Of a stretch of 64,000 nucleotides of DNA, positions 1,980 to 36,800 are shown piece after piece. Under the pieces are notes generated by a model. The model was not told where the DNA came from. It worked only from the letters and a program-made list of their open reading frames with translations, and ran no database searches. Numbering within the stretch: the first letter of the stretch is position 1; each line of letters starts with the position of its first letter. The position numbers were made by a program, and so were the translations under genes. The DNA comes from an uncultured candidate division Zixibacteria bacterium (GTDB lineage: Bacteria; Zixibacteria; MSB-5A5; UBA10806): contig CAWFQL010000017.1 of assembly GCA_963817915.1 (NCBI GenBank), positions 276,308 through 340,307 on the forward strand, read 5' to 3'.

Positions 1980-2197
1980 GTTTTTATGAATTAAATTACC
2001 TGTTAAATATAATTTGGAAAAATTGCATATTTAATTATATTGATTTCGCATGAGTTAATTGGAGATGCCGACAGGTACTGCCTGTTTAGGGCAGGATTAC
2101 GAACAAAGGCAGAAATATGCCTGTTATTGAATCGCACATAATATCATATTTAAAGTACAAATTCTATCTGATTTGAATAATTAAATTGGAGGATAAA

Positions 2198-15250: not shown

Positions 15251-15834
15251 TTGGCTCGGATCGGTATACTCGGGGGTACTTTCGATCCGCCGCATAACGG
15301 CCATATTGCATTAGCGTTCGCGGCTCTGGCTCAGCTACAACTGGATAGGATAATTTTTATTCCGGCCAATAAGCCTCCACATAAGCCGGAAACTGTAATT
15401 TCATCCGCAAATGACAGACTCAATATGCTGCGGCTGGCCATAGATTCGATAAAGGATTTTGACCTTTCCGAAATAGAATTACATCGGCCGGGGAATTCTT
15501 ATACGATTGAAACATTATCGGAGCTTAAAGCAGTTTATCCTGACGATGAGTTTTATTTTATAATAGGAGCTGATAATGTTGCCGAAATGGAAGGATGGCA
15601 TAAGCCCGAAGAGATTTTCAAATTGGCTACAATAGCGGCGGCCAACAGACCGGGCTATATGACCCAAAGGCAGGTTTGCCGATAAAGTCAAATACTTTGA
15701 GATGCCTTTAAAAGATATATCATCGACTGCGATTAGAGCGTTGGTAAGTGCCGGTAAATCGATACACGAACTTGTGCCGGACGCAGTAGAGAAATATATT
15801 TATAAGCATCACCTTTATGGAGCCAATGGATAGA
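15251..15834 (+). CDS. nadD: Nicotinate-nucleotide adenylyltransferase NadD, with an apparent -1 frameshift near 15655-15685
   Basis: [11 protein letters not shown] (HxGH) motif. The C-terminal part ([32 protein letters not shown]...YIYKHHLY) continues in frame 1 after the called stop at 15685. Confidence 0.75.
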
Positions 15835-18514
15835 CTGATATTAATCGACGGTTCCGCCGTCGCCTACCGCAGCTATTTCGCATTTATACGGAATCCTTTG
15901 ATCAATTCACGCGGTGAAAATACCGGGGCGATATTTGGCTTTGTCAATTCCATTACAAAGATTATCAATGATTTCAAGCCTCAATATTTCGGTGTTGTCT
16001 TTGATACTCCTGTACCGACATTCCGACATGAATATTATCCCGAATATAAATCGACCCGCGCGAAAACGCCTTTCGAATTAATAGAACAGTTTCCGTGGAT
16101 CGATCAGGCGATTCTCGGATTCAATATTCCGGTTATCAAGATGGACGGCTACGAAGCTGATGACGTAATCGGAACTTTGGCCCAGCAAGCGGCGGGTCAG
16201 GGGTTAGAAGTGTTGATGTTTACAGGAGATAAGGATTATTATCAGCTTGTAAACGATAAAATCAAGATACTCCATCCCAAGGATTTTTCGATTATAGATT
16301 CGGCCGGTGTTAAGGAAAAATTCGGCGTCCCGCCTGAGAAAGTCATAGATACGTTGGCCTTGATGGGTGATACTGCTGATAATATTCCGGGTGTTGCCGG
16401 GGTCGGGCCGAAAACCGCTATTTCGCTGATTGAGGAGTTCGGCGACCTCGACAATGTTCTCGAAAAGGGGCCCACAGAGAAAAAAGGCAAACTGGCTGAA
16501 TCTTTATCCAAATACAAAGACCAGGCGATTTTATCTAGACGATTAGCCACCATAAAACTTGATTGCCCGATTCAACTCGAATTGGATAAATTGATAATCG
16601 AGGAGCCGGACTATAAAACGTTGGCCGAGCTTTTCCGCCGACTGGAATTCAAGAATCTTGCCGATAAATACGCGTCGACCAAAGCCGAAAGTCTTTTCCA
16701 GAACGAAACCAAATCCGCCGCTTCTGATTATCGAACAATAGACAAAATAGAAGAACTGGATTCGGTCTTAGATAGAGATTGCAGAAAAAGAGGAATTCGC
16801 ATTAGATACTGAAACCACTTCGATCTCGGCCTTAGACGCGAAATTGGTCGGAATATCTTTATCTTTCGAGGCGAAGACAGGATTCTATATTCCACTGGGT
16901 CACAATGGCTACCATAACTTACCGTTGGAAGATGTCTTGAATCGATTCAGTAAGCTTTTTCAAACGGATATAAAAGTTATCGGCCAAAATATAAAATATG
17001 ATCGTCAGGTGCTCAAGAATCACGGTCTCCATCTGGATAAACCGTCATTCGATACAATGATAGCGGCATATCTTGTCGATCCCGGCAAGCGAATCTACAA
17101 TCTCGATTCAATGGCGCTCGAGCATTTTAATTATAAAATGATGCCGATCACTGATTTAATCGGGACGGGCAAGAAGCAATTGAATTTTTCCATGGTGAAT
17201 GTCGAAAAGGCCACATTTTATTCCAGCGAGGATGCTGACTATACCTTAAGGCTGAAAAATATATTCGCGCCGAAGTTGATAGAATTAAAATTAGATTCGC
17301 TTTTTGATAATATAGAGATGCCGCTTCTACCGGTTCTCGGAGATATGGAAGAAGTTGGAGTCAGGATCGATTCCGAATTTCTGGGTCAGCTCTCACACGA
17401 ATACGGCAAGAAAATGAAGAATGTCGAAAAAGAAATATTCGATGAAGTGGGCGAAGAATTCAATCTTAATTCGCCTCAGCAATTGGCCAAGATACTTTTC
17501 GAAAAACTGAAACTTACGTCGTCGCGACGCACCGCCAAGGGCGGCGCGCTGGCCACATCGGTGGATATTCTTGAAAAACTCGCGGAGACCCATCCGGTTC
17601 CCCGATTGGTTCTCGAGTACCGGCAATTGACGAAATTAAAATCGACCTATATCGACGCGCTTCCGGCGATTGTAAATAAAAGAACGGGAAGAGTGCATAC
17701 GAGCTTTAATCAAACCATAGCTGCCACCGGCAGGCTTTCATCGACTGATCCAAATCTCCAGAATATCCCAGTTCGCACCGATGAGGGCAGGGAGATTAGA
17801 CGCGCGTTTATACCCAAAGATGATAATTTCAAGATTATGTCAGCAGATTATTCTCAAATCGAATTAAGAATAATGGCACATTTCGCCAATGATGAAACGA
17901 TGATCAAATCGTTTGAGCTTGGCGAGGATATTCATCGCAGGACAGCCGCCGAAGTATATGGAGTGGATATTCGCGATGTCACCGATGAACAAAGGCGTTC
18001 GGCGAAAACCGCTAATTTCGCCATAATCTACGGAGTCTCGGCGTACGGGCTATCTCAACAATCTGAATTGACTCTGAATGAATCGAAGGATTTCATAGAT
18101 ATCTATTTTGAACGATACCCCGGAATAAAAAAATACATGGAGGACATCAAGAATTTCGCCCGCGAGCATGGGTATGTATCCACGCTGTTTGATCGGCGGC
18201 GCTATCTACCGGATATCCTCGCCAAGTCAGCGCAGGCACGCCAATTTGCGGAAAGAACAGCGATCAATACTCCGATTCAGGGAACTGCCGCCGATATGAT
18301 TAAAATCGCTATGATCAAAATCGCGGACTTAATCGGAAATTTCAAATCCAAAATGATATTGCAGGTACATGACGAGCTGGTTTTCGACGCTCACAAAGAT
18401 GAAGTGGATTCTCTGCGAAATATAGTAAAGCAGGAAATGGAGAATGCTGTTAAACTAAAGGCGCCGATCAGGGTAGATATCACAGTCGGAGATAATTGGC
18501 TTGAGGCCAAATAA
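15817..18514 (+). CDS. polA: DNA polymerase I (5'-3' exonuclease, 3'-5' exo-like and polymerase domains), with an apparent +1 frameshift near 16787
   Basis: 5' nuclease region with HhH ([18 protein letters not shown]). Deleting one base at ~16787 gives the continuous read ...[39 protein letters not shown]. Pol motifs: [18 protein letters not shown] (motif A), [14 protein letters not shown] (motif B), QVHDELVFD (motif C). Confidence 0.9.
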
Positions 18515-21122: not shown

Positions 21123-21322
21123 AAATTATACTTGACAATTTTGGTATGAACAATATCTTAGACGTAATTTGAATTGACGAAAGGAAACGCTTATCGTAAT
21201 TGGCTAAAGGGTAGTTGTAGAAAAGCGAAGAGATTGTAAAAAGGCTTTACCTACATGCCCAGTGGCTAATTTTTTGTCTTTGGCCGAATGGCCGAAGATG
21301 AAATGTATTCATCGGAGGATTG

Positions 21323-24300
21323 ATGCTCTGCCGAAAAAAACTGATTTTGTTAGGACAGGCATTTTTTTCGATTAGTATCTTAATAAGCATATCTTCAGCT
21401 TCGACCATTTTTGACGGCGATGTAGAAATTTTAAAATCCGATAATTCAGGCGTAACCCTGAAATATAAAGTTCCTTCGAGTTCGTTTACGCCGTTTGAAC
21501 AGGGCAATAACAAATATCATTCTCTTAATATTGAGCGAACGGCTCAAAATCGCGTTGAAGGACAATCAATAATTCCTATAAAGATTGTGCCGTTGGCCTT
21601 GCCTCCCGGCGCCACTGCCAAAATCCAGGTGATCGACGCAAATTATAAGGATGCGGAATTTAAAAAATTGCCGCCATTTTTTGCTCGTTCTTCAAAGGAA
21701 GAATACGACAAGGCATACGAAGATGCCTCATTAAAGAGCACCGTGACGCATAGCGATCCATATATAGTATCATTCGATAATTTGAGGGGATTAAAAATTG
21801 CCAGAATTGGCATCCCTGCGATTAGGTACTCTGAAAACCCGCCAAGTTTATCGATGCTCCAGACCATCACGCTTAGAGTGGATTTTGTGGGCGGACAGTC
21901 AAATTTGCCGGTGTCATTCCAGCATCCTGGAAATGCGTTTAATAAGATTTTTTCCAAGGTGGTCGCCAACTATGATGTCGGGGCCAATTGGGTCGCCAAA
22001 GAACAGAAAATTGCTCTTGGAGCGTCAGCGACTTCAAGCGTATTCGATTCAGCATCCACATGGTTCAGAATGGAGCTTACAACAGAGGGGATTTATTCTA
22101 TCGGCTGGAATCAATTTCGATCATTAGGGATAGCTAATCCAGATGTGGATATTGATCCTTCGCGCGTGCGTGTCTTCTATGGAGGCGGCAGGGAACTACC
22201 TCCCAATAATAGTACGCCCCGTCCGGAATTTAGGGAAATCCCAATACAGTTTATCGATGCAAATGGCAATGGTGTATTCGATGGTTTGGATTTATTTGTA
22301 TTTTACGCCGACGGAGTCGATAGTTGGGAATATGATTCGACCTTGAATAATTTTATTCGGTATAAAAATCATTATACCAGCAAGAATGTATTTTGGCTCA
22401 CAATCGACGGGAATTTTTCCGGACCTGCCAAACGATATCCAAGCTGGGATGGAAATCCCAATGGGGCATATGATGTCTCTACTGATTCATACACTGCAAT
22501 GTTTAATAAAGAAGAAGATATTCTATTCTGGAAATATTCACCAATCCAACAGGATTATAATGATTATTTTGAATGGTATTGGGCTTCGGGAAAATCATTT
22601 TCAACCAGCGCGCAGTTGTATGATGTTGTTTCTGGCGGAACGGCGGAAATAATAGTCAGGCATAGGGCAGGTAATCTTTCGCTGACGGTAAACAGCTCAA
22701 GTGCAACCCCGATGCGCCAATTACCTCCTTTTTCGATATTTTCGGCATCGAATCTTAGGGACGGACTCAATAGTATCACATTACAGTCAGTTACCAATTT
22801 CTATACTGATTATATAAATATTCTTTATCCCAGATGGCTGAGGACAATTGACGGCAATTTGCGATTCTCGCAACCGGATACTTTTGGGGTTGTCCGTTAT
22901 AATCTTACCAATGTAGATTCGGATTATTTGCTTCTGGATATATCCGACAAGATGAATCCCGTTAAAATAGCAGGCGGGTCATGGAGTGGGCAGAATCTAT
23001 CATTTCTTGATACTGTATCAGCGCAATCGCATAAACAGTATTATATTTCAAACAAGAATCGATTCAAGACTCCCAGTTCGATAACGACCTATCAAATTGA
23101 TAATTTGAAAGATGTGAATTCATCAAACAACCGCGCTGATGAGATTATATTGACTTACGATGGATTCTATGATCAGGCAGTGCGCTTGGCCCAGCATCGT
23201 CAGAACGTATATGGTCTGGCCACAAGAATAGTCAAAATATCAGATGTCTATAATCAATTTTCTTACGGCCTTTTGGATGCCATTGCCATAAGGGATTTTC
23301 TGAAATATGCTTATGAAAATTGGCAATCGCCAGCGCCATCCTACGTGGTTTTGCTGGGAGATGGCAATTATGATTATAGAAATTACATGGGTTCAAGTTC
23401 TCATATTTATATACCGCCATATGAATATCTGCCTCTATTCGGCAGCGACCTCGGAATGTCGGACGAGCTTTTTGTCTATTTTGGGAGTTACGGTAATCTC
23501 GATTCGGATTCAAATTCAATTCCCGACATGATGATTGGAAGAATTTCTGCCCGATCGGTACAAGATGCTTCCGAGATGATTGATAAGATAATCGATTACG
23601 ACAGCAATCCGGATCTTGGCCCCTGGAGAAACAGGGTAGTCGTTGCTGCAGATGATAATCTTCACCCTCCGCATGATAACGATTGGAATCATACCGCGCA
23701 AGCCGAGGATCTGGCTAATCACCATGTGCCCAATAGCTTTGAAACCGGTAAGATTTATTTGATTGAATATCCAATGGGGGCAGGCGGCGAAAAACCGCAG
23801 GCAAGAGAAGCCCTTATGAGCGCATATAATCAGGGCTCATTGATCATCGATTGGATTGGACACGGGAGCGCCGGTCTTTGGGCTGACGAGCACATTTTCC
23901 GGAGAATCGAAGATATTCCACGTTTGCATAACGGCAAAAGACTTTCTCTGGTATTCACCGCCTCATGCTCGATTGGCGCATTTGATTTTCCGGCATTTGA
24001 AAGCATGGCGGAGGAATTGGCTCGCACTTATGGACGCGGGGCAATTGCGGTAATCTCGGCAACAAGAGGAGTATATGCCACATCCAATGGCCAATTCAAT
24101 AATGCAGTATTCGATCAGTTATTGAATTCAGATTCAGTTGGAATAGGCGCCGCGATGTATATAGCGAAATTTTTGAGGCAATCAGGCGATAGCGGAACTA
24201 ATACAAATGACAGAGTATATGTGCTTTTTGGAGACCCGGCGCAGCTTTTGCAATTTCCCAAGTATAAGGTGAGATTCAATTCTGTCCCGGATTCATTGGC

Positions 24301-25351
24301 CGCGCTTACCGAGAACGAGGTTTCAGGTGAAATTACCGATGTTGCCGGCAATATTATGAGCGATTTTAACGGCACTGTTTGGGTTTCCGTTAAAGATGGA
24401 GCGACCTTAAGATCTGTGGCCCTGCTCGATCGATATAATAATCCGATATCTCCACCCCAATTCATAAGCTTTATTAAATCCGGCGCCACCATTTTTCATG
24501 GCCCTACGGATGTCGTCAATGGTCATTTTACTGGCCGATTTTTTACTCCGAAAGATATTTCTTATGGCAGCGCTGATGCCAGGATATATGCTTATGGTGA
24601 AAATGGGGTTTACGATGCCGTCGGAGTAGCAGATTCCCTTAGAATTTCTGGTTCAATGCCGACCGATCAAGATTCGACCGGCCCTGTTATACATCTATTT
24701 GTTGACGGGAGGCCGTTCAGACAAGAAATAACACAGGTTCCATCGGCTTTTGTACTTACAGCGGATATTACCGATGATCACGGGGTCAATATTACCGGTC
24801 AGTTGGGTCATGGAATAGTTTTAAGTATCGACGATGGCAGAGTATTAGAAATGGATATCACCGGCAACTTTAGTTACGGTAGAGGAAATTATCAGGGCGG
24901 TGTTTTGACATTCCAAACGCCCGAACTGCCGCTTGGACAGCATACTTTGTCTTTGAAGGCCTGGGATAATTTCAATAATTCCACGCTGACTAATTCAAAT
25001 ATTGAAGTGGTTTCAACTCAAAATCTTGCTATCTCCAATGTTATGAATTATCCGAATCCTGTGAAGGGAATCGGAGTGAATACATCATTCCAATACTGCC
25101 TGAATGAAAATGTAGATAAAATTATAATCAAAATATTCACTGAAGCGGGGAGAAAGATAAAGACGTTGGAATTTACAAGTCCGGATTATACGCAGATGGA
25201 TTGTCATCAGGTTGATTGGAATCTTAGAGATGGCGATGGCGATCCTATTGCCGATGGAATTTATTTATATAAAGTTATAGCGGAAAAGCAGGATGGGAAC
25301 GGTTCCCATTCGGAAGCTGACGATACCAGAAAATTAGTAATACTGAGGTAA
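21323..25351 (+). CDS. porU: PorU-like T9SS C-terminal signal peptidase / sortase (gingipain C25 family) with its own T9SS CTD
   Basis: GGAGGA RBS and signal peptide. C25-like catalytic His (LIIDWIGHGSAG) and Cys (LVFTASCSIGAFD). ~1340 aa. C-terminus NYPNPVKGIGVNTSFQYCL...IYLYKV is a CTD. Directly upstream of a PorV-like gene. Confidence 0.7.
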   Translation: MLCRKKLILLGQAFFSISILISISSASTIFDGDVEILKSDNSGVTLKYKVPSSSFTPFEQGNNKYHSLNIERTAQNRVEGQSIIPIKIVPLALPPGATAKIQVIDANYKDAEFKKLPPFFARSSKEEYDKAYEDASLKSTVTHSDPYIVSFDNLRGLKIARIGIPAIRYSENPPSLSMLQTITLRVDFVGGQSNLPVSFQHPGNAFNKIFSKVVANYDVGANWVAKEQKIALGASATSSVFDSASTWFRMELTTEGIYSIGWNQFRSLGIANPDVDIDPSRVRVFYGGGRELPPNNSTPRPEFREIPIQFIDANGNGVFDGLDLFVFYADGVDSWEYDSTLNNFIRYKNHYTSKNVFWLTIDGNFSGPAKRYPSWDGNPNGAYDVSTDSYTAMFNKEEDILFWKYSPIQQDYNDYFEWYWASGKSFSTSAQLYDVVSGGTAEIIVRHRAGNLSLTVNSSSATPMRQLPPFSIFSASNLRDGLNSITLQSVTNFYTDYINILYPRWLRTIDGNLRFSQPDTFGVVRYNLTNVDSDYLLLDISDKMNPVKIAGGSWSGQNLSFLDTVSAQSHKQYYISNKNRFKTPSSITTYQIDNLKDVNSSNNRADEIILTYDGFYDQAVRLAQHRQNVYGLATRIVKISDVYNQFSYGLLDAIAIRDFLKYAYENWQSPAPSYVVLLGDGNYDYRNYMGSSSHIYIPPYEYLPLFGSDLGMSDELFVYFGSYGNLDSDSNSIPDMMIGRISARSVQDASEMIDKIIDYDSNPDLGPWRNRVVVAADDNLHPPHDNDWNHTAQAEDLANHHVPNSFETGKIYLIEYPMGAGGEKPQAREALMSAYNQGSLIIDWIGHGSAGLWADEHIFRRIEDIPRLHNGKRLSLVFTASCSIGAFDFPAFESMAEELARTYGRGAIAVISATRGVYATSNGQFNNAVFDQLLNSDSVGIGAAMYIAKFLRQSGDSGTNTNDRVYVLFGDPAQLLQFPKYKVRFNSVPDSLAALTENEVSGEITDVAGNIMSDFNGTVWVSVKDGATLRSVALLDRYNNPISPPQFISFIKSGATIFHGPTDVVNGHFTGRFFTPKDISYGSADARIYAYGENGVYDAVGVADSLRISGSMPTDQDSTGPVIHLFVDGRPFRQEITQVPSAFVLTADITDDHGVNITGQLGHGIVLSIDDGRVLEMDITGNFSYGRGNYQGGVLTFQTPELPLGQHTLSLKAWDNFNNSTLTNSNIEVVSTQNLAISNVMNYPNPVKGIGVNTSFQYCLNENVDKIIIKIFTEAGRKIKTLEFTSPDYTQMDCHQVDWNLRDGDGDPIADGIYLYKVIAEKQDGNGSHSEADDTRKLVILR

Positions 25352-25409
25352 GAAACTGTATGAATTTGACCGACAATAATATAGATCATCATTGTAATCG
25401 GAGGATGGA

Positions 25410-27986
25410 ATGAGGCAGTATAAATTAGTAATATTACTTTTATTGGCGATGTCAGCATTAGCCGCGGCCCAGGTTTCGCAAACTGCGGTCCAGTTCTTGT
25501 TGATAGCACCGGGGGCCAGGGCCGGAGGCATGGGAGAGACATTTATTGCGATTTCGGATGATGCCACGGCCGTACATTGGAATCCAGCGGGTCTTGGACG
25601 GTATCCGCTCACTGCTTCGTGGCTCGATTTTAACTCCGCTCCCGGCGATACAATTCAATCATTATCAATGGTTAAAAATAATTTGCCCGAAAATAATTAT
25701 CGTCAATATGATCTTTGGAGCATTATTAACGGTCACCTTACCAAATGGGACGGCGCTCACTGGGTTGCGGGCACGTTACAGCCATTGAGAGCTGGAGCTT
25801 CACTGGAATCAGTGATAATGCGCTATACCGGCTTGGGCGAAAACGAAGCGGCGCCATATATTGATAAATTGGCCAGAGCCAATAATACTATCATGCCTGA
25901 AACAATGGATTCATTGAAAACAGAAATAATGGCGGCTCTTCCTCAGGATTATTTATATAAAGAAGATCTCCAATATGGCTTTGAAAAACTCCATAAGGCA
26001 TGGCTTCAGCTTCGAATAAATGTCAAAGGATTTTCCGCAATTCGGAATGATATAAACAATGTCCTGGCTGATTCAATAGCCACCACCGATGAAATGGATA
26101 AAGTGACATTCGGTTTTGATAGAGGAATCGAAGCCAAGGGCGACAGAGAAGTCTGGCTGCCGTACGACTTGACTCTTCCGGATAAGATTAATTGCCTCAA
26201 TTCCGATGAAGAAATTCTTTATCTCGGAACCAATAATGGCTTATACAGATTCGATCCTCAAAAGAGCATCTGGTCATTTTTTACGGTCGCCAAAGATTCG
26301 CTGCCATCGGATAATATCACGGCGATTGAAAAAGGCTCCAAGAAAATGATGTATATAGGCACGTCAAATGGGCTGGTGAAATTCACCGGCAGGAATATTA
26401 CCAAATTCCCGCCCAATTCCGATGTGCCTACAGGTCAGATTGACGCTATTGCCGCGTCAAGCGATCGTGATGCCTGGCTGGCATCGGATGGCATCCTTTA
26501 TCACTATGACGGCGCCAAATGGAGCCAATTCAAGGAAAAAGAATTATCGATCGGGGAGAGCATTCCCAAAGTTGTCGAGAAATTTTATGGTGAAATAGGC
26601 ACTGTCATGTATGATACAGTTATGAGCATGGTAACTGCCTACAATTCAACAAAGGGAGATACAACTCAAACCGGGAAGCCGATAAAATTGCCGTATAATC
26701 TCGGATACAGAGGAAAGATAACAGCTCTCGGTGTCGATGAAAGATACCGTCTCTGGATCGGTACTACTTACGGAGTAAGTCTTTTCACCGGCGATGATTT
26801 CAAGCTATTTGGATACAAGATATATCAGGCGCCGGAGTCCACTTCAGTGCAGTCAGTTGCCGCTCAATATATAACCGATCGTGATCCTCAAAAGATCGAG
26901 CTGCTTTCATCGAAGATAAGGCAGTTTAACGGGCTTGAGTCCGATCAGATCAATTCCGGCAAAAAGCTTTTGGTTTATTCCAATTCACTGGGATCGGAAA
27001 TAAAAGCTATCAGACCAATTACCGGAAAAAAAGTTGCGGTCGCTACATCGTACGGCGCGGTCGAATATGATAATGGCAAATGGAGTCGAATTCAGAATCT
27101 GGATATTGCCAGGTCTAATGTCTCCAATATATATGCCAAGTCTGGCGATATGTGGTTTGCATCTCCTAAAAAAGTCTCGGTCTATGCCGCAGCCAAAAAA
27201 CAGGTGACATTCATGCATTCCAATTATCTGGTGCAGCTTGCCAGCGATCTTTATTACGATTTCTTTTCGATCGTATATCCAACAGCCGATTGGGGGACAT
27301 TTGGTTTCGGAGTTCATTTCATTTCATATGGAGAGCAACTGCGCACAAATGAAAACAATTTGCCCGAAGGCTCGTTTACTTCTTATGATATAGCGTTTAC
27401 AGTATCATACGGCACGAATCTAATGAACAACCTCTATGGAGGACTTTCAGTTCGCTATATAAATTCGCATCTTTCAGTGGTAGGCGCCGGTGCTGAAAGA
27501 GGTAAAGGTGTAGGGTATTCGCTGGCAGTTGATGCCGGCGTGATCTATGATATGACCCGCCGACTCACTCTGGCCGCGACCGTAACCAACCTCGGCCCCG
27601 ATATAGCCTATATCGATGCTGATCAGGCGGACCCGTTACCAAGAAAATTGGCGCTCGGTTTTGCCTATAAACTTATCGATTCGCCATTTAATAAATTGAC
27701 AGTTTTGGGCGAAGCCACAAAACTATTGGTTGATTTGAATCACAGTGTCAAGACGGAGATTGAAGAGATTATTCCGCATATCGGAATCGAGTACTGGTAT
27801 TCGAATTATGTGGCTTTAAGAGCGGGATATGTCTACGACAAAATCGGCGTGCAAAAATACTTTACTTTGGGCACGTCGCTGCAATACAGCAGTTATCGAT
27901 TTGATTTCTCTTATATTCCAGCGTCGAGCGAGGAGACTAATAGGTTGGCCAATACTATGCGTTTTTCCATGAATGTGGGGTTCTAA
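25410..27986 (+). CDS. porV: PorV(LptO)/PorQ-like FadL-type outer-membrane beta-barrel carrying a large inserted Reg_prop-type beta-propeller domain
   Basis: Signal peptide, then the PorV-family N-terminal motif QTAVQFLLIAPGARAGGMGETFIAISDDATAVHWNPAGLG. About 500 aa follow with repeats of the form (L/M)(Y/W)IGT..GL..F (EILYLGTNNGLYRFDP, MYIGTSNGLVKFTG, LWIGTTYGVSLFTG, and so on). The C-terminal ~280 aa is a beta-barrel ending ...MRFSMNVGF. Confidence 0.55.
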   Translation: MRQYKLVILLLLAMSALAAAQVSQTAVQFLLIAPGARAGGMGETFIAISDDATAVHWNPAGLGRYPLTASWLDFNSAPGDTIQSLSMVKNNLPENNYRQYDLWSIINGHLTKWDGAHWVAGTLQPLRAGASLESVIMRYTGLGENEAAPYIDKLARANNTIMPETMDSLKTEIMAALPQDYLYKEDLQYGFEKLHKAWLQLRINVKGFSAIRNDINNVLADSIATTDEMDKVTFGFDRGIEAKGDREVWLPYDLTLPDKINCLNSDEEILYLGTNNGLYRFDPQKSIWSFFTVAKDSLPSDNITAIEKGSKKMMYIGTSNGLVKFTGRNITKFPPNSDVPTGQIDAIAASSDRDAWLASDGILYHYDGAKWSQFKEKELSIGESIPKVVEKFYGEIGTVMYDTVMSMVTAYNSTKGDTTQTGKPIKLPYNLGYRGKITALGVDERYRLWIGTTYGVSLFTGDDFKLFGYKIYQAPESTSVQSVAAQYITDRDPQKIELLSSKIRQFNGLESDQINSGKKLLVYSNSLGSEIKAIRPITGKKVAVATSYGAVEYDNGKWSRIQNLDIARSNVSNIYAKSGDMWFASPKKVSVYAAAKKQVTFMHSNYLVQLASDLYYDFFSIVYPTADWGTFGFGVHFISYGEQLRTNENNLPEGSFTSYDIAFTVSYGTNLMNNLYGGLSVRYINSHLSVVGAGAERGKGVGYSLAVDAGVIYDMTRRLTLAATVTNLGPDIAYIDADQADPLPRKLALGFAYKLIDSPFNKLTVLGEATKLLVDLNHSVKTEIEEIIPHIGIEYWYSNYVALRAGYVYDKIGVQKYFTLGTSLQYSSYRFDFSYIPASSEETNRLANTMRFSMNVGF

Positions 27987-27990
27987 GATA

Positions 27991-30900
27991 GTGAATTTAT
28001 CGAAACGCACTTTAATAATTGCTATTGGCATACTATTTTTGGTCTCGGCCCACTTTTCATTTGCCCAAAAGATTCTCAAGCCGCTTTCATTGAGATCAAT
28101 TCCCAGAGAAAGTACGGTTAAGAGTGACGAATTCCGATCCGGCGTATCCGAAAAGAATTTGCTGGGATTGGAGCGGCCGTCGCTTTATGCATTGCCGACT
28201 GCGAAACACGGTATGCCATTAACTGCCGCGAGCATTATGTCTGATTCGATCAGGGTATTGGTTTTGAAGGTTGAATTTCAGAAAGAAATACCGGATGATC
28301 CATACACGACCGGCGATGGCACATTCGATCTTAGAACATATGATCAATTTGTAGCCGCGGAAGGACATTATATCGATCCCGCGCCTCATAATACATCATA
28401 TTTCAATGCTCACATGCAAGCTTTGCACAATTATTGGTATTATGTTTCCGAAAAGCAGCTGCAGATTCAATGGGATGTATATCCTCAACCAGAAAGCGTT
28501 TCGATTCAATTGCCGGTGCCAATGGCCTATTACGGATCGAATATGAATTGGGAAAGTATCGGCGACAGACTCGGTAATTTTCTGATCCGCGCAATTACAC
28601 TTGCCGATTCATTATATCCTGAGATCGATTTCGGCCGTTACCAGGCGGTCATTGTTTTCCATGCTGGTTCGGATCAACAAAATAATCTTTCCTATTTCCC
28701 TCAATTCGATACGCCATACGATTTCTATACAGGGTTCCTAAAGCTCAGCAAGCCAGTTATGGTGGATGATAGCACAGTTGCTATTCAGGAGGGGACGATA
28801 CTCCCGGAATTTGCAAGTCAGGATAACCGTATTACCGCCCTAAATGGTGTAGTAGCCCATGAATTTGGACATCAATTAGGACTCGTAGACCTATACAAAA
28901 CCGACAATTTCTTTACGCAGGTTGGCGATTTTTCGCTGATGGACAACAATGGAATGTCGGTCGGTGTCCAATTCCCTGATATAGGGCCGACAGTCGGCGG
29001 TACGATGCCTGTTTACCCCGATGCCTGGTCGAGGGCTTATCTTGGATTCGATATACCTCGTGAAATTACCGATGGGAATAATGTGCCAATTTCAGCGGCC
29101 GCTCAAAATCATGGAAGTACAGAGATAATCAAAGTGCCAATTACCGAATACGAATATTTCCTGATTGAAAATAGACAGCAGGACGCCGACACATTGGATC
29201 CATCCAACCCATTTGCTGATATTTTAGTTGGCGATCCGGCTACAGGAGTGATTTTAGGCCCGGGGTTTGCATATTTTCAGGGAAACGATACAATTTTGGT
29301 TTCCGATGGCGAATACGATCGGATTACTCCCGGCAATGGTGCCGTAATATGGCACGTCGATGAAGCAGTCGCTTATCAGGATACTCTCCACAATGGCGAT
29401 AATAACTTTTTTAATAATACACTGCAATGGGACCCCGCCAGGAGATTTCTGTCATTGGTAGAAGCTGATGGCGTAATCGATTTCGGAGGGTATTACTACC
29501 GGGGTTATGGCGATGATAATGATTATTTTAAGGGACCGAATAGGGTATCATTTACGCCCAGCACTAATCCATCATCGAATTCCATTCTGGGATGCGATTC
29601 TCATATTTCTGTTACGGATATTTCCAATTCGGATACTTTGATGTATGTTGATATAAATATCGATTGGCTGATGGCCGGATGGCCCCAAATGGGATTGCCC
29701 AATCAAATGTCCGATCCGATAATAGCCGATCTTCTGTCGAATGATACTTCGGAAGTTTTGATTACGGCGTCCAATAGATTGCTTATCTGGAAGCCAAATG
29801 GACAAAAATTTATTTCCAATGGCGATTCCGTAGGAATCTTGAGATACGATAGCAGTATCGCAATCTATCCCTGGGCTATTGCCGCCGAATGCGATAGTAC
29901 GATTTCGACCAGGCCCGTGATTTTCGATTATAATGGCGACGGCGAAAATGATATCGCGTTGACTTCGAATTCGGGACGATTGTACGCGTTTAATCCTCGT
30001 GATAACAACTCCGATGGCCGACTCGATCCGATTGTCGGTTTCCCTCTGGATCTGCATTTAAATACGCGGTTGGCTCCGATAACAGTGAATTTCCTACCAG
30101 GCGCTGAGAACGAGCTCATCGCATTCGATGATTCCGGCAAGGTGCATATGGTTTATAATGTCCTGGAAGACAGTGTCGTGTACAATTTTAACGGGATAGT
30201 AATTTCTGCCGCCGCGTATCAGGTTGCCGGGAAAAACGTAATCGACGCTTTGGTCAGTCAGCCAGGCGGAACGAGCCTGAATCGAATCGCGGCCGATTCC
30301 GGGACTGCGGTTTTCGCGCAGGAATTTTCGCCGGTAGCATTTCCATTTTATCATTATGTTCCCTCTATACCGGTTTCTATAATTGCAGTCGATATAGACA
30401 GGGATGGAAATTTGCCCGAAATCCTGATTACATTTTCCTACAAAATAGAGCTTATAAAAAATGACGGTTCAGTCGCGTGGTCTATCGATACTGATCGTGA
30501 GCTTTATCATACCGCAATTGGCGATATTAATTCCGATGGTTATCCTGAAATCGTGATAGGCGCCGAATCGGCAATATACGCATTTAATTATACAGGCTCT
30601 TTAATGCAGAATTTCCCCATCGATATGAACAAGTATAAACTCGGTGGAGCGATAATATCGTCGCCGATATTGGGGGATATTGATAACAATGCAGCACCGG
30701 AAATTATAGTCGGTTTGCCGGGCGGCGGCATTTACGCATTTGATCAATACTCTGACCGTGTCGCAGGATTCCCATTGCCGAGTTCATTTGGAGTCAGTAA
30801 CTCGGCGGCGTTAGGCGATTTAAATAATGATGGGGAAATTGACCTGGTCACGGAGGAAAATTCGGGATTTGTCAAGGCCTGGAATTTATCAGCGCCATAC

Positions 30901-31278
30901 GAATTCGCGAATGTTCCCTGGGGCATGGCAGGCGGCAATATCTTCAATAATTCTTATCTTTCGACAGTCTATCAAAAAAATATTGCGGCGACCGATCAGC
31001 AGTTGCCGGTGAATTCCGTATTCAATTATCCCAATCCCGCGACCAACAGTACAACCATCCGTTTTTACCTGAACAGCAATTCGAATGTGAAGATAGAGAT
31101 GTTTGATTTGATGGGCGACAGGATTCACGACGCAACCATTGCCGGGCAGGCGCACGCGGATAACGAGTATGTTTGGAATTGCCAAAATGTAGCTTCAGGA
31201 GTATACTATTGTCGTGTTGAAGCCGCGAATAATACGGGAAAAACATCGAGAATGATTAAAATTGCCATCGCCAAGTAG
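27991..31278 (+). CDS. Secreted M6 (immune inhibitor A-like) zinc metallopeptidase with FG-GAP/VCBS repeats and T9SS C-terminal sorting domain
   Basis: Signal peptide; HEFGHQLGLVDLY zincin motif; at least five FG-GAP-like repeats (FDYNGDGENDIALT, VDIDRDGNLPEILI, IGDINSDGYPEIVIG, LGDIDNNAAPEIIVG, LGDLNNDGEIDLVTE). C-terminus VFNYPNPATNSTTIRFYL...VYYCRV is a CTD. Confidence 0.7.
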   Translation: MNLSKRTLIIAIGILFLVSAHFSFAQKILKPLSLRSIPRESTVKSDEFRSGVSEKNLLGLERPSLYALPTAKHGMPLTAASIMSDSIRVLVLKVEFQKEIPDDPYTTGDGTFDLRTYDQFVAAEGHYIDPAPHNTSYFNAHMQALHNYWYYVSEKQLQIQWDVYPQPESVSIQLPVPMAYYGSNMNWESIGDRLGNFLIRAITLADSLYPEIDFGRYQAVIVFHAGSDQQNNLSYFPQFDTPYDFYTGFLKLSKPVMVDDSTVAIQEGTILPEFASQDNRITALNGVVAHEFGHQLGLVDLYKTDNFFTQVGDFSLMDNNGMSVGVQFPDIGPTVGGTMPVYPDAWSRAYLGFDIPREITDGNNVPISAAAQNHGSTEIIKVPITEYEYFLIENRQQDADTLDPSNPFADILVGDPATGVILGPGFAYFQGNDTILVSDGEYDRITPGNGAVIWHVDEAVAYQDTLHNGDNNFFNNTLQWDPARRFLSLVEADGVIDFGGYYYRGYGDDNDYFKGPNRVSFTPSTNPSSNSILGCDSHISVTDISNSDTLMYVDINIDWLMAGWPQMGLPNQMSDPIIADLLSNDTSEVLITASNRLLIWKPNGQKFISNGDSVGILRYDSSIAIYPWAIAAECDSTISTRPVIFDYNGDGENDIALTSNSGRLYAFNPRDNNSDGRLDPIVGFPLDLHLNTRLAPITVNFLPGAENELIAFDDSGKVHMVYNVLEDSVVYNFNGIVISAAAYQVAGKNVIDALVSQPGGTSLNRIAADSGTAVFAQEFSPVAFPFYHYVPSIPVSIIAVDIDRDGNLPEILITFSYKIELIKNDGSVAWSIDTDRELYHTAIGDINSDGYPEIVIGAESAIYAFNYTGSLMQNFPIDMNKYKLGGAIISSPILGDIDNNAAPEIIVGLPGGGIYAFDQYSDRVAGFPLPSSFGVSNSAALGDLNNDGEIDLVTEENSGFVKAWNLSAPYEFANVPWGMAGGNIFNNSYLSTVYQKNIAATDQQLPVNSVFNYPNPATNSTTIRFYLNSNSNVKIEMFDLMGDRIHDATIAGQAHADNEYVWNCQNVASGVYYCRVEAANNTGKTSRMIKIAIAK

Positions 31279-31307: not shown

Positions 31308-32144
31308 ATGAAGAAAAGCATTCCAATTATAATTATGATAGGTGTCATATTGTGTCTTGCGGCTGAATCCTTTGCGGGTGGAATAACTAAAACTACATCT
31401 GCTAAAGAACTATTTTTGCAGAATGGATTAACATTGGAAAAGTATTTCAGCCGAAAATTATATTTAGCCAAAAAAGATGATTTAACAAATACTGATGTTT
31501 ACGAGTATGGTACCAAATCGCCTATGAAGGCCTTCGGCCTATCGTTGTTGGTGCCGGGTGCTGGTCAATATTATGTGGAGGCATCGAGGATAAAAACCGG
31601 CGTATTTTTGGGCGCCGATATTCTTCTATGGTCCGGATATCTCGTTTATCATCATAAAGGCGCCAACGGGGAAAAGGATTATCGGAGTTTCGCTGACCAG
31701 CATTATCTCTGGCAGACCTATGATCAATGGTGGTGGTCGCTGCCAGAGCCTACAAGAAACCACTATTCCCATTCTTTGCCGTGGGATCAAACTTTGAATC
31801 AGCCGATTAGAAATCGAGAGTATTATGAAAATATCGGGAAGTATGATCAGTTCCAGGTCGGCTGGGATGATGTTGGATTAAACAATCCTCCCGATTCGAC
31901 AAATAGCGTTACTTATGGCAATAGATTGCTTTATCTTAATATGCGCAAGAAGGCCAACGATTATTTTTCAAATGCCACGACCATGGCCATGATTTCTATT
32001 GCCAACCATATTATCTCGGCATTTGATGCCGCAATTGGCGCCAAGAAATTCAACAGAGGCGGCAAGCAATATTCAATGGCTCTAAAAGCCAAGAGATATA
32101 ACGGCAAAACAATACCATATCTTTCATTGGCGATGAAGTTTTAG
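31308..32144 (+). CDS. Hypothetical exported/membrane protein, paralog A (shared A-F-G-L-S-L-L-V-P-G-A-G-Q-Y-Y-V motif; ends ...AMKF)
   Basis: Signal peptide; the motif FGLSLLVPGAGQYYVE is followed by a hydrophobic helix; C-terminal Phe. Confidence 0.4.
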   Translation: MKKSIPIIIMIGVILCLAAESFAGGITKTTSAKELFLQNGLTLEKYFSRKLYLAKKDDLTNTDVYEYGTKSPMKAFGLSLLVPGAGQYYVEASRIKTGVFLGADILLWSGYLVYHHKGANGEKDYRSFADQHYLWQTYDQWWWSLPEPTRNHYSHSLPWDQTLNQPIRNREYYENIGKYDQFQVGWDDVGLNNPPDSTNSVTYGNRLLYLNMRKKANDYFSNATTMAMISIANHIISAFDAAIGAKKFNRGGKQYSMALKAKRYNGKTIPYLSLAMKF

Positions 32145-32153
32145 GTGGGAGAA

Positions 32154-32900
32154 ATGGCCAGGATAGTATCAATCATTCTCATATTGACGATATCGCTATC
32201 AGGCAGCGGTTTCGCTCAGACTATTTCTCAGAAGGTAATGTCATCGATACAAAAGCCGAACGACGATGATGGTCTTAATGAGCCAACTTACGCCCCTGAT
32301 AAAGCAAATGCCGATAAGTCTAAATATAAGGCGTTGGGCCTTTCGATTTTATTACCAGGCGCGGGACAATATTATGTTGGCAGCAAAAAGAAGATGGTGA
32401 TATTTGCCTCGGCGGAAGCCCTGATATGGTCCGGTTTTTTTGGATTCAGGATGTACGGATCATGGAAAAAGGAAGACTACAAAGCCTGGGCTGCATTTCA
32501 CGCTGGCGCCGATATTAACGGCAAATCTGATCGTTTCTTCGAAAAAATGACATACTATGATAATGTTAATGAATTTAATCAGCTTGAGCTTCTTTACGAA
32601 GGTACCAACGCCCAGCCATTTCCATCCAATTCATCATATTACTGGAATTGGGATTTCAAATCTTCGAAAGATCATTATCGAAACCTGCGGAATCTCAGCA
32701 AGACGGCATATCGTCGATCGCTATTATTTATAGGGGCGGCAATTGCCAATAGAATTCTTTCCGGAATCGATGCTTATAGAGCGGCGAATGCCTATAATAG
32801 CGGCAAAGAATTCAGTGAAAAAGGGTGGCAGATATACAGCTCATCCGATAGCCCATTGGGGGCTGGTGGATTTGAAATTGGTCTTGCCCTCAAGTTTTAA
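32154..32900 (+). CDS. Hypothetical exported/membrane protein, paralog B (same PGAGQYYV motif; ends ...LALKF)
   Basis: LGLSILLPGAGQYYVGSKKKMVIFASAEALIWSGFF parallels paralog A. Tandem duplication. Confidence 0.4.
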   Translation: MARIVSIILILTISLSGSGFAQTISQKVMSSIQKPNDDDGLNEPTYAPDKANADKSKYKALGLSILLPGAGQYYVGSKKKMVIFASAEALIWSGFFGFRMYGSWKKEDYKAWAAFHAGADINGKSDRFFEKMTYYDNVNEFNQLELLYEGTNAQPFPSNSSYYWNWDFKSSKDHYRNLRNLSKTAYRRSLLFIGAAIANRILSGIDAYRAANAYNSGKEFSEKGWQIYSSSDSPLGAGGFEIGLALKF

Positions 32901-32904
32901 ATTG

Positions 32905-33846
32905 ACTGCGGCTTTTTTCTGCCTTTTATGGCTGAATTGCGCGTCGACCAGCAAAGCGCCTGCGCAATTAGAAAATACAATCTCAGGCCCTATAATAAAT
33001 CTCCGCCTCGCAAATTCCATAGGCCCCTTTATCGATGAAAATAACTCATTTACTGAGCCCGCGGGAATAACATTCAACGCTTTAGGCGAAATTTATGTCT
33101 CAGACAGGCTGAGCAATTCGATATATAAATTCTCACCTGAACTAAGGCTGTTGGCTCGGGAGGGCGGTGTTGGAATGTCTTCCGGCGGTTTCAATAAACC
33201 ATTGGGGATCGCCTGCGATGCGGCACTAAATCTCTATGTCGCCGATAATGGCAATCGGCAAATTCAGATTCTCGACCGCGATCTTCATTTTGTTAATACT
33301 ATAAGTTCTTACTATAATGACAAAGGCGAGTCTATCAATTTCGATTTACCATCGGATATTTCAATAGACAGGGAAGGCAATCTCTGGATCGCCGACAACG
33401 ACAAGATATTAGAAATAAACCCATTCTATAATTTGACGCTCGAAATATCAAATAGAGTGCCCGGTGGAGTATTTATTGGAAAGTCATCATCGGCTGAAGT
33501 ATCCTCTCAAAATATGGTTGCTGTAGGCGACCCGGATAACGGCGATGTTCTGTTGTTATCAATATACGGCAATCTCACGAAGAGGATTGCAGCCGGTAAT
33601 GCTTATGCGGTTGCCTGGGACAATTATGGAGAAATTTGGGTAGCTGACCCTGAATCCAATCGAATCTCGGCTTATGATAAAAATGGAAGGGTCTTATTTA
33701 TTTTTTCTGATACTGAGCGAGGATCCAGTCCGGCTTGGATTGCATTTGATTCTAACGGCAGATTGGGGGTAGCTGATAAGGGGCTTCGCAAAATACGTAT
33801 TTACGATATTATCCGCGGTACAAAGCAGCCTGACCTCCCCAAATAG
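32905..33846 (+). CDS. NHL-repeat (six-bladed beta-propeller) lipoprotein
   Basis: TTG start, signal peptide with lipobox LWLNC. Repeated NHL-like units (PAGITFNALGEIYVSD, PLGIACDAALNLYVADNGN.QIQILD, DISIDREGNLWIADN, AWDNYGEIWVADPESNRISAYD, IAFDSNGRLGVADKG). Confidence 0.65.
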   Translation, partial: TAAFFCLLWLNCASTSKAPAQLENTISGPIINLRLANSIGPFIDENNSFTEPAGITFNALGEIYVSDRLSNSIYKFSPELRLLAREGGVGMSSGGFNKPLGIACDAALNLYVADNGNRQIQILDRDLHFVNTISSYYNDKGESINFDLPSDISIDREGNLWIADNDKILEINPFYNLTLEISNRVPGGVFIGKSSSAEVSSQNMVAVGDPDNGDVLLLSIYGNLTKRIAAGNAYAVAWDNYGEIWVADPESNRISAYDKNGRVLFIFSDTERGSSPAWIAFDSNGRLGVADKGLRKIRIYDIIRGTKQPDLPK

Positions 33847-33852
33847 CTTTTA

Positions 33853-36800
33853 ATGAATAAATGGCCAGTCATATTATTTTCAATTCTACTTTCATCTAAC
33901 ATCTTCGCCCAAATTCCGGATACAAGCGTCATAATCCATGGCAAGGGTTCACGAGGCCCATATCAGATCGGTTTCAAGAACCTTATAAGTGGCTCCTCGA
34001 AGATAATAAGGGATAATATCGAGCTCTCTCCCGATAGCTTTTCAGTTATATATGAGGATGGCCTGATAAATCTTTCCAGACCATTAAATATCGAAGATTC
34101 TATAATCGTATTTTTCAAATATTTGCCTCTTAATCTTGAATCGACCTACTATCTCCATCGCCCCGTCGAAGCAGGTGAAGCTCCCTCAGAAAATTATCAA
34201 TCCGAAGTTAAAACCAGCGCGAGTGCAGGTAATGATCTCTCAATCGTGGGAAGCAAAGGTTTTTCGATTGAAACCGGCGGAGGAAACGGGCTTTCACAAT
34301 CGTTGAATTTGACAATCAAAGGAAATCTACTGCCGGGCTTAAAGACGTCGGCGCACATATCTGATAAATCTCAAGGCAATTCTTCCGTCACTCGAAAATT
34401 AAATGAATTGGATAGAATTTATATCGAAGCAGAGTCGGATCACTTTAAGGGAATATTCGGCGATTTTGATTATATCCATTCCGGTTCCAATTTCATGAAT
34501 TTCCAACGAAAATTATCCGGGTTGAATATGAAATATTCCAAAGCGAATACCAATCTCGGCGCGGCCGCCGCATTTTTCCCTGGAGACTATTCTTCAATCG
34601 CAATCAATGGTCGCGATGGCCGTCTCGGCCCATACTATCTAACCGATATTGGAGGGCGTCAGGGGGCGCAGGTCTTGCCTGGCTCGGAACGAGTATATCT
34701 TGATGGCGTTCTTCAAAAGCGAGGTAATGAAAACGACTATGAGATTGATTATGAGGCCGGCAGCATTCAATTTGCGCCTTCAAAGGTGCTGCGGAATGAG
34801 AGCCGGATTGTCGTAGATTATGAAATTGCCCGCGAAGAATATAATCGTTCATTCTACACAATCTCCGGCGGATCGTCGCCTATCGGAAGCTTAAAAATCA
34901 CTGCAGATCTGGTTCAGGAGGGTGATAATAAAAATTCGCCAAAGAGCTTTGAGATGACGTCTGATAATCTTCAGATTTTGCAAGATGCCGGGGCAGAAAG
35001 GCTGAATGCCGCAAGAAGCGGTGTGCAATTTGTAGGGACGGGATTAGGAAATTACACTCTTGCCACCGATACCCTGGGCAATCCTTTTTACATTTATGCC
35101 GGCCCTAATCGAGGCGATTATAATGTCAGTTTTTCGTTTATAAGTACGAATGGAGGTTCATATAAATTTCTCGGCACCGGTATTTATCAATATGGTGGCA
35201 AACTTGCGGGCGACTACGAGCCGATTATTCTTATTCCTCTTCCACAAACAAAGCGGTATGCCTCGGTTGGTTCGTCATGGTCATCGGCCGACAGCAATTT
35301 AACAATCGAAGCCGAACTTGCGGGCTCAATGTTCGATAGAAACAGCTTGTCGGATAAGGATGCCTTGAATAAGGGTGTTTCGTCATTCGTAGCGGCGAAT
35401 TATCGGAAAAAGCTTTACTCCGATGATGGTTCGCTTATGGTAAACGCCAAGGCAAGAAATATTGGCGGAAGTTCGATTTTCCCCGGGAGAATAGACGATG
35501 TCGAGCGATATCGAATTTATGATATCGATCCAAATTCATCCGCGAATGGCGAGAAAGTTCAGGAAATTGGAATCGTAAATTCATTTAATCGCACAAACAA
35601 AATCCAATATCTTATAGGTCATTTAAGCCGCCCATTGATCAGCGACAGGGTTCATCATTTGGGAGAGGCAAATTGGAATCTGTTCGATATGCTCGATCTT
35701 TATGGGCGAATAGAAAAAACTTCAGGCAGCAGGGATTGGTGGAAGCGTGGTGGCGCAATGACAGCCAACTTCGCCCGCCTTCAGCCTTCATTTCGAATAG
35801 ATTATGAAAGACAAAATGGAGCCGGCGGTTTTAAATTCAATGAATTGACAGGGATAATTCCGGCCACGTATCTGCAATCAGTAACGGGCAGCACTGAAAT
35901 CGTTTACAGAATAGAGCAAGCATTAGATAATCAAATCAATATCTGGAAGCCGAAATTCAAGTCGGGCTCATTCAGCCAGCAGATAAGTTTTTTGCCGGGG
36001 AAGGCGGGATTTTCAGGCGACTTATCCGGAGTATATTACAAAAAACACTATTCCGATTTTTCCGGGAGTAATGTCGAACAAAAAACAGGCTGGGGCAGGC
36101 TATCATTCAGCGACCCTCAAAGCAGGGGGAGTTTCAGCGTCAATGAACGATTGAGCTCATCCAACGAACGACTGCAAGCGCAAAACTATATCTTATGTGG
36201 GACAGGGCAAAGGGGAATATCGCTTTGAAGACGGTGAATATATTAAGGATCAGCAAGGAGACTATGTTCTCATTATAGAAGAATTAGGCGAAGGCTCGAA
36301 AATCAGCGATATTTCTACCGAGCTTAACGCGTCGATCGCGCCATTTTTGCTGGCGGGAGCTGGACAATCCTCCCGGAGCTCGATAGGAAAATTAAATATA
36401 GAAACCGATCTTTCTTACAGGCAGAAAAAATCATCCGATATCCTTGAGTGGCGCGATTTCTATCCATGGAGAACAACCACTCTCCAAAATATTGTCTATC
36501 GAAATGGTCAGCTGAATTTTAGAATATATTATTACCCGCCTTTTGAAAGACAACGATTCAAATACTCCGGTTCAAGATCATTTGAGGCCGGAAGTCCTTT
36601 TGCCAATGAAACTACAAACGGCAATTCTCGATCGGACGAAATTTCATGGGCATTTCCGGCGAGCGCGAAGATCGATATTATTGTCAATGGATCATTGTCA
36701 TCAAGACAAAATTCTACGAATCTTTCCGTCTATTCCATTGATAGCCGGCTGGTTTCCATGTCTGCTGATTATCGTTTCGCAGATGGCTGGACTGTAAATT

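Follow-up and report, generated by a model that had tools for sequence, protein, structure and literature searches.

What does a PorV-family protein do with some 530 residues placed between its plug and its first barrel strand, and on which side of the outer membrane do they lie? The question is raised by a gene of the system for type IX secretion (T9SS) in a stretch of 64,000 nucleotides (nt), the whole of which we call the window, from an uncultured candidate division Zixibacteria bacterium (GenBank assembly GCA_963817915.1, contig CAWFQL010000017.1, forward-strand positions 276,308 to 340,307). The gene encodes a protein of 858 amino acids (aa), here called the long PorV. The picture of the T9SS rests on Bacteroidota, where PorV is a small mobile carrier in the outer membrane and the periplasmic scaffolding is provided by separate proteins. 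The extracellular loops of PorV bind the C-terminal sorting domain (CTD) of cargo, and its partner is the sortase PorU. A previous reading, made from the DNA letters without database searches (the sequence-only reading), had described the protein as a PorV-type barrel interrupted by a propeller and had suggested that the propeller recognizes cargo at the cell surface. As a description of the sequence this was correct, but it missed three LysM-like units, a helical hairpin and the spread of the form through the lineage. The long PorV is a real, lineage-wide and so far undescribed architecture. The structural argument, which is solid, would place the inserted module in the periplasm; for its function we argue by analogy. 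Full-text searches of the literature returned neither a paper linking PorV, the T9SS or type IX secretion with Zixibacteria nor a description of a PorV with a propeller or LysM module, in keeping with the earlier remark that no described PorV of this architecture was known. The single paper in which PorV, LysM, beta-propeller and T9SS occur together is unrelated.

The two ends of the protein belong to the PorV/PorQ family. The Pfam PorV model (PF19572) matches the 858-aa protein in two stretches (E 7e-21, 75.3 bits, cut-off 27), and the NCBIfam PorV/PorQ family model (NF033709, cut-off 90 bits) scores 235.2 bits with the native protein. When the insertion is excised, leaving a construct of residues 1-66 and 594-858, the latter score becomes 254.9 bits in one stretch that covers profile positions 1-326 of 326. 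A phmmer search against the Flavobacterium johnsoniae PorV chain 6h3i_F aligned query residues 6-61 with 6-64, 597-775 with 72-259, and 780-858 with 315-395, indicating that ~535 aa have been inserted between PorV residues 64 and 72. The barrel ends in ...MNVGF, and by fold comparison the best structural match of the long protein is PorV itself. With these matches and the modelled strands described below, the FadL-type 14-strand barrel of the sequence-only reading stands. PorQ was considered as an identity and rejected, its score being well under that of PorV: the PorQ model (NF033711, cut-off 220 bits) gave 85.9 bits with the native protein and 104.1 bits after excision, against 196 bits for PorV with the excised form. 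The TPR, CRD and OmpA_C domains of PorE found no Pfam or NCBIfam match in the long PorV. The protein belongs to the PorV/PorQ family and resembles PorV in fold and synteny; by their models it is not PorQ, PorZ or PorE. That it is a PorV orthologue is the best reading. Its closest barrel relatives are short PorV/PorQ proteins of KSB1 and Calditrichota (~350 aa; 45-51% identity over 94-100% of the insertion-less construct), which have the same plug and barrel without the insertion, and one of which (P0130) passes the PorV equivalog model with 257.4 bits. Among 51 homologues the plug is the most conserved part (mean top-residue frequency 0.89), with 0.74-0.78 in the barrel and 0.46-0.64 in the module. 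The L1 loop, which aligns with the CTD-contacting Asn87 of F. johnsoniae PorV, is conserved. The extracellular S9-S10 loop (27735..27770, residues ~776-787) is ~25-30 residues shorter than in the short KSB1/Calditrichota proteins, and far shorter than its counterpart in F. johnsoniae PorV (260-314).

The point at which the module enters the chain was located with an AlphaFold2 model built from the 51 homologues, which is confident (mean predicted local distance difference test score (pLDDT) 85.8, predicted template modelling score 0.77). All 14 barrel strands (598-857) are C-terminal to the insertion, from S1 at 598-605 to S14 at 850-857. The plug (residues 27-63), which bears the FadL-type NPA motif, is free of strands, and the module lies between it and S1. 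Directly after the plug comes the first propeller strand of the module (70-75), which, as we read the secondary structure, closes the last blade; the last propeller strand (588-593) ends four residues before S1. A search with the insertion-less construct returned canonical PorV-family proteins of ~350 aa (KSB1, Calditrichota and others) at 40-49% identity over 94-100% of the length. In a multiple alignment the short KSB1/Calditrichota proteins are contiguous over the junction, with one clean gap opposite query residues 63-593, which argues for a single insertion.

The membrane side was judged from anchors in F. johnsoniae PorV, in which Asn87 and Phe115 belong to the extracellular loops that hold the cargo CTD and residues 193-199 form a periplasmic loop contacted by SkpA (PMC10994853). 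In the phmmer alignment Asn87 falls in the S1-S2 loop (L1), Phe115 in the S3-S4 hairpin and residues 193-199 in the S6-S7 turn, placements that indicate that S1 starts at the periplasmic face. Since S1 begins there and only four residues separate it from the last propeller strand, the module should be periplasmic as well. From the model and the alignment we infer, tightly, that the module is attached at either end to the periplasmic rim of the barrel and hangs beneath PorV in the periplasm. The suggestion that a structure prediction would find the propeller in an extracellular loop was not borne out: no strand precedes the insertion.

The propeller has seven four-stranded blades, which we read from the secondary structure of the model at residues ~82-126, 260-291, 303-330, 344-378, 437-467, 531-560 and 573-593 (the last together with strand 70-75). 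The Reg_prop model (PF07494) scores 29.3 bits (cut-off 20.4) and matches 48 of the 51 family members, so that the claim of a ~500-aa insertion of Reg_prop type holds. The closest sequence relatives of the blades among solved structures are the propellers of Bacteroides hybrid two-component sensors (3ott, 3va6, 4a2l, 3v9f), the only non-PorV sequences in the PDB that phmmer matched significantly (E 2e-11); the title of entry 4a2l speaks of a periplasmic heparin-sensing domain. In those sensors tandem propellers precede a Y_Y_Y domain, a membrane helix and kinase modules, whereas the long PorV has a single propeller with LysM-like insertions inside an outer-membrane protein. A fusion with a PorZ-like protein was also considered. 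The PorZ model (NF052228, cut-off 260) gave 24.4 bits (E 8.8e-6) with the insertion over one blade-sized stretch, and the Pfam PorZ_N_b_propeller model matched 2 of the 51 members (best E 2.6e-4). The similarity is at the level of the blade only, and the idea was rejected; PorZ has two propellers and a CTD, the long PorV one propeller and no CTD.

Three LysM-like units, called 0, A and B, are set into the propeller between blades 1/2, 4/5 and 5/6, the first of them split by a helical hairpin. A profile of unit A searched against the PDB retrieved nearly only LysM proteins (LytE, E 1.4e-6; 4uz2, E 1.5e-4; YkuD; Ecp6). The consensus of unit A retains the hallmark positions IGExL ... N ... GQxIKLP, and the isolated unit was modelled by AlphaFold (pLDDT 77) as a strand-helix-helix-strand fold. 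Pfam LysM matches occur in 8 of the 51 homologues (best E 5.7e-11) at the positions of units A and B: those in the divergent homologues P0068 (5.7e-11) and P0070 (2.1e-7) map exactly to unit A, and that in P0078 coincides with unit B. Profile-profile comparison links unit B to unit A (hhalign probability 97.3%, E 1.6e-11). Unit 0, spliced across the hairpin (residues 122-164 with 240-254), also matches the profile of unit A (probability 95.8%, E 7e-9); 20 column shuffles reached E 0.0025 at best. The splice was chosen after the pattern had been seen; it is independently confirmed by an 806-aa homologue (P0079; L001/L002 10001-12421) that has no hairpin 165-239, and in which the two halves are naturally contiguous. 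The locus of this homologue keeps the gene order, with PorU upstream of the porV gene and both a CTD protein and a DUF5683 match downstream of it, and adjoins a ribosomal protein operon. Against LysM profiles only the flanks of the hairpin region match, and the hairpin itself found no match outside proteins of long-PorV size in the insertion-only search. The unit A profile, the profile-profile links, the homologues that pass the Pfam model and the fold comparison together support the LysM call for these divergent units, and their predicted fold is LysM-like. A subgroup of long PorV proteins of ~1047-1052 aa (P0073 at L003 10001-13144 and the representatives P0224, P0226 and P0231) has ~190 additional residues after the plug and ahead of the first blade. 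To the eye this stretch resembles unit 0 and the hairpin repeated in tandem (ending ...RPWQIRVPYTVLL), which would make four LysM-like units.

The architecture is not peculiar to one genome: in the Zixibacteria-type genomes that were recovered, the long form is the general one. When 5.8 billion protein clusters were searched, ~80 clusters (at 90% identity) of 856-878 aa proved collinear with the query over 98-100% of its length, with identities of 30-64%. The assemblies behind them are from NCBI, ENA, JGI and Logan, and the informative labels name Zixibacteria. Among GTDB genomes, scanned at one per species, there were 365 loci with relatives; of the best 80 of these, nearly all span query residues ~1-858, and four end at a contig edge. 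RBG-1, with which Zixibacteria was founded, and two complete chromosomes belong to the 80. The orthologues with the same insertion that the sequence-only reading had proposed to look for thus exist in number. Every part of the module is at ~100% occupancy in the 51 homologues, down to 32% identity. A search with the insertion alone against 1.84 billion representatives gave 83 proteins at E up to 1e-30. Matches to the whole module were confined to proteins of ~850-1050 aa and start at residue ~64-72 (at ~260 in the ~1050-aa subgroup), and the remaining matches are generic multi-repeat Reg_prop proteins, aligned over blades only; no free-standing module was seen among the 83. Many metagenome-assembled genomes with the long porV operon are titled 'uncultured Ignavibacteria' (binchicken assemblies: L010, L012, L014, L027-L029 and others) and one 'Terriglobales bacterium' (L040). 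These labels are probably placeholders or wrong taxonomy, or the contigs were mis-binned.

The gene lies in a conserved neighbourhood (Table 1), directly after that of PorU as the sequence-only reading had it. When the neighbours were searched by tblastn on 83 related loci, PorU was found directly upstream of the long porV in 67/67 and the CTD-bearing M6-like gene directly downstream in 66/66 of the loci with enough flanking sequence. The two genes with weak DUF5683 matches, the NHL gene and the gene of the 791-aa protein recur in 60, 59, 44 and 48 of the 83 loci, respectively. The best NCBIfam model for the M6-like protein is 'T9SS-dependent M6-like inactivated metalloprotease' (364 bits, cut-off 600). 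Its zinc motif HEFGHQLGLVD is intact, however, and the protein may therefore be an active enzyme. T9SS sorting domains of type A are also present in two proteins upstream (73..1926 and 2186..4957), one of them with WD40 repeats; taken with PorU and the M6-like protein, these two show that the genome encodes T9SS cargo. The 791-aa protein (open reading frame (ORF) 33853..36228) has a SprA-like stretch of 19.6 bits, far under the cut-off, and the scan of the window ORFs, which covered about half of those with 180 aa or more, recognised neither sprA nor porKLMN. After the 791-aa gene, up to 38797, come a 312-aa protein without a recognised family and a POTRA-domain protein resembling Omp85/BamA. 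The gene of DNA polymerase I is divided over two frames, ORF 15817..16812 corresponding to PolA 2-312 and ORF 16844..18514 to PolA 335-889. Because the second frame already reads PolA before the first one stops, a single frameshift near an A-run (junction near 16770-16800) would account for the split, either as a sequencing or assembly error or as a pseudogene.

Table 1. Features of the long porV gene, its product and the neighbouring genes (window coordinates; residue numbers refer to the 858-aa protein).
Feature	Coordinates	Strand	Remarks
PorU (T9SS sortase)	21320..25351	+	58 nt upstream of porV; NF033707, 687.6 bits (cut-off 420)
Shine-Dalgarno-like GGAGGA	25400..25405	+	4 nt ahead of the ATG; read from the sequence
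Long PorV-family gene	25410..27986	+	Single uninterrupted ORF, 858 aa and stop codon
Signal peptide, residues 1-21 (...ALAAAQ)	25410..25472	+	Hydrophobic N-terminus, low pLDDT, aligned to the PorV signal peptide; putative cleavage site
N-terminal plug (hatch) with FadL-type NPA motif, residues 22-63	25473..25598	+	Without barrel strand; aligned to PorV 6-64 and to short PorV proteins
Inserted module, seven-bladed Reg_prop-type propeller, residues 64-596	25599..27197	+	
LysM-like unit 0, N-terminal part, residues 121-164 (strand, helix 1, helix 2)	25770..25901	+	hhalign, spliced with 240-254
Helical hairpin within unit 0, residues 165-239	25902..26126	+	Model helices 163-176, 184-199, 205-220, 226-239
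LysM-like unit 0, C-terminal strand, residues 240-254 (GDREVWLPYDL)	26127..26171	+	hhalign and alignment with P0079
LysM-like unit A, residues 374-431, between blades 4 and 5	26529..26702	+	
LysM-like unit B, residues 466-526, between blades 5 and 6	26805..26987	+	Profile-profile match to unit A
14-strand FadL/PorV barrel, residues 597-858	27198..27983	+	Conserved L1 loop (SNYLVQLASDLYY); terminal Phe
M6-like metalloprotease with FG-GAP repeats and T9SS type A CTD	27973..31278	+	ATG overlaps the porV stop by 14 nt
Two weak DUF5683 matches, NHL-repeat protein, 791-aa protein without family	31308..36228	+	Pfam and NCBIfam scans

What might such a module do beneath PorV? With moderate confidence, and by analogy, we favour the view that the protein is a PorV orthologue with a built-in periplasmic platform for anchoring and docking. 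Through the LysM-like units, PorV and PorU would be fastened together to peptidoglycan, and the propeller would offer a docking face to periplasmic T9SS partners or to incoming cargo. One chain could in this way combine roles that Bacteroidota give to PorE and to the SprE/Skp structure. Three precedents make anchoring and docking the most economical reading. In Porphyromonas gingivalis, the T9SS depends on the periplasmic lipoprotein PorE, whose peptidoglycan-binding residues are essential for gingipain secretion and whose WD40 propeller contacts the PorP barrel (PMC12773672). In F. johnsoniae, SkpA contacts the periplasmic face of PorV, and a 'dish' of SprE and SkpA lies beside PorV at the mouth of SprA (PMC10994853). 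In the outer-membrane barrels intimin and YeeJ, a periplasmic LysM binds peptidoglycan (PMC5595812). The likeness to PorE (PG1058) and PorP is one of function, a periplasmic beta-propeller and a peptidoglycan-binding domain on a T9SS outer-membrane barrel; no homology was detected, the peptidoglycan-binding fold of PorE is OmpA_C rather than LysM-like, and the partner barrel is PorP, not PorV. Intimin and YeeJ, which are inverse autotransporters, have a single canonical LysM, no propeller, and a different barrel family and secretion system, whereas the units of the long PorV are divergent and their binding is putative.

Compared with Bacteroidota PorV (LptO; 6h3i and 8gl6 of F. johnsoniae), the long form shares the conserved L1 loop, the position of its gene directly after porU and the presence of CTD cargo genes nearby. 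It differs in the ~530 residues between plug and S1, in the shorter S9-S10 loop and in scoring under the PorV equivalog cut-off. A wall-tethered appendage of 60 kDa would limit the lateral mobility of PorV that the shuttle model assumes, and a long PorV so tethered could not act as a freely diffusing shuttle. Going further, the Zixibacteria PorV might be tied permanently to the wall through its propeller and three LysM-like units, and cargo might be handed over in a fixed wall-anchored assembly without lateral shuttling. This extension we put forward tentatively and think on the whole doubtful; if it were true, the shuttle step would not be universal in type IX secretion.

Several observations weigh against an anchored PorV orthologue. 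The protein falls short of the PorV equivalog model (NF033710, cut-off 250 bits), scoring 175.8 bits as the native protein and 195.9 bits once the insertion is removed. Its handling of cargo may differ, since its S9-S10 loop is shortened. The module evolves faster than the plug and barrel. The periplasmic side was assigned by strand counting and alignment to F. johnsoniae PorV rather than by a computed membrane orientation. The Pfam LysM model (PF01476) has no match in the 858-aa protein even at E up to 1, which is why we term the units divergent, and the profile of unit B searched by itself against the PDB is not significant and at most suggestive (LytE, E 0.053). The scan for paralogues, finally, was confined to the 64-kb window and the 8-10 kb flanks of related loci.

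The main rival, which we consider rather unlikely although it survives best, is a periplasmic docking platform that does not bind the cell wall. The LysM-like units would then be structural or protein-binding decorations, and the propeller would bring in CTD cargo or chaperones, or link PorV with parts of the translocon or motor, as a built-in equivalent of SprE, Skp or PorD. The evidence on topology serves this explanation exactly as it serves anchoring, and the periplasmic face of F. johnsoniae PorV is indeed a protein docking site that the SprE/SkpA dish adjoins (PMC10994853). The faint LysM signature of the 858-aa protein also fits it. Decorations of this kind are harder to reconcile with the retention of three LysM-like units throughout the family, with the several members in which they are bona fide Pfam LysM domains (5.7e-11), and with the hallmark positions kept in the consensus of unit A. 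A scaffold with several LysM units is typical of a glycan-binding protein, which we also count against the docking-only explanation.

It is improbable that the long PorV is not a cargo carrier at all, being instead a fixed, PorQ-like anchor for PorU in the attachment complex, or an envelope tether, with a short PorV encoded elsewhere acting as the shuttle. The equivalog score and the shortened extracellular S9-S10 loop would agree with such a role, and a tether to the wall seems at odds with a freely diffusing shuttle. On the other hand, the protein is nearer to PorV than to PorQ (196 against 104 bits) and has PorV as its best structural match, the CTD-contacting L1 loop is conserved, and the order porU-porV is kept in every locus. 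No second PorV-family gene was found in the 64-kb window or in the 8-10 kb flanks of the 83 related loci, the extent of the scan on which a short PorV elsewhere would have to be judged.

Very unlikely is the explanation nearest to the sequence-only reading, in which the propeller sits in an extracellular loop and recognizes cargo or substrate at the surface, or a surface propeller like that of PorZ has been fused to PorV. PorZ is a surface component of the T9SS with propellers of similar type, and there are the weak matches to its models (24 bits; 2/51 members), but that score compares with a cut-off of 260. The insertion point (PorV 64/72) is between plug and S1, with all 14 strands after it, the loops anchored by experiment in F. 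johnsoniae PorV put the start of S1 on the periplasmic side, and a linker of four residues is too short for the chain to return from the surface. With the module in the periplasm, a role in surface cargo recognition becomes untenable.

That the gene is an artefact, whether a chimeric assembly, a fused gene or a decayed one, has a negligible probability: the same full-length architecture recurs in ~80 independent clusters and 80 genome loci from many studies, the ORF is uninterrupted, the GC content is even over the long porV and its neighbours (0.43-0.46), the model is that of a confident single chain, and nothing was found in favour of the idea, the only sign of sequence error in the window being the polA frameshift. 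Chimeric assembly, for which read mapping had been proposed as a check, is ruled out here by the conservation across assemblies and the even composition.

The general picture that emerges is that a whole set of related genomes, with Zixibacteria as the label wherever it is informative, carries a PorV with a conserved 60-kDa module, composed of a propeller of the glycan-sensor type and three LysM-like units. Long PorV proteins have been filed in public databases as 'PorV/PorQ family protein' or 'hypothetical protein', and their description corrects this gap in annotation. The periplasmic placement shifts the likely meaning of the module from surface cargo recognition to a built-in coupling with the envelope. 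The host organisms are uncultured. If the module binds the wall or docks partners, this natural fusion would show which functions are needed under PorV, would test the generality of the shuttle model, and would give structural studies a compact construct in which to see how the outer-membrane part of the T9SS connects with the rest of the envelope.

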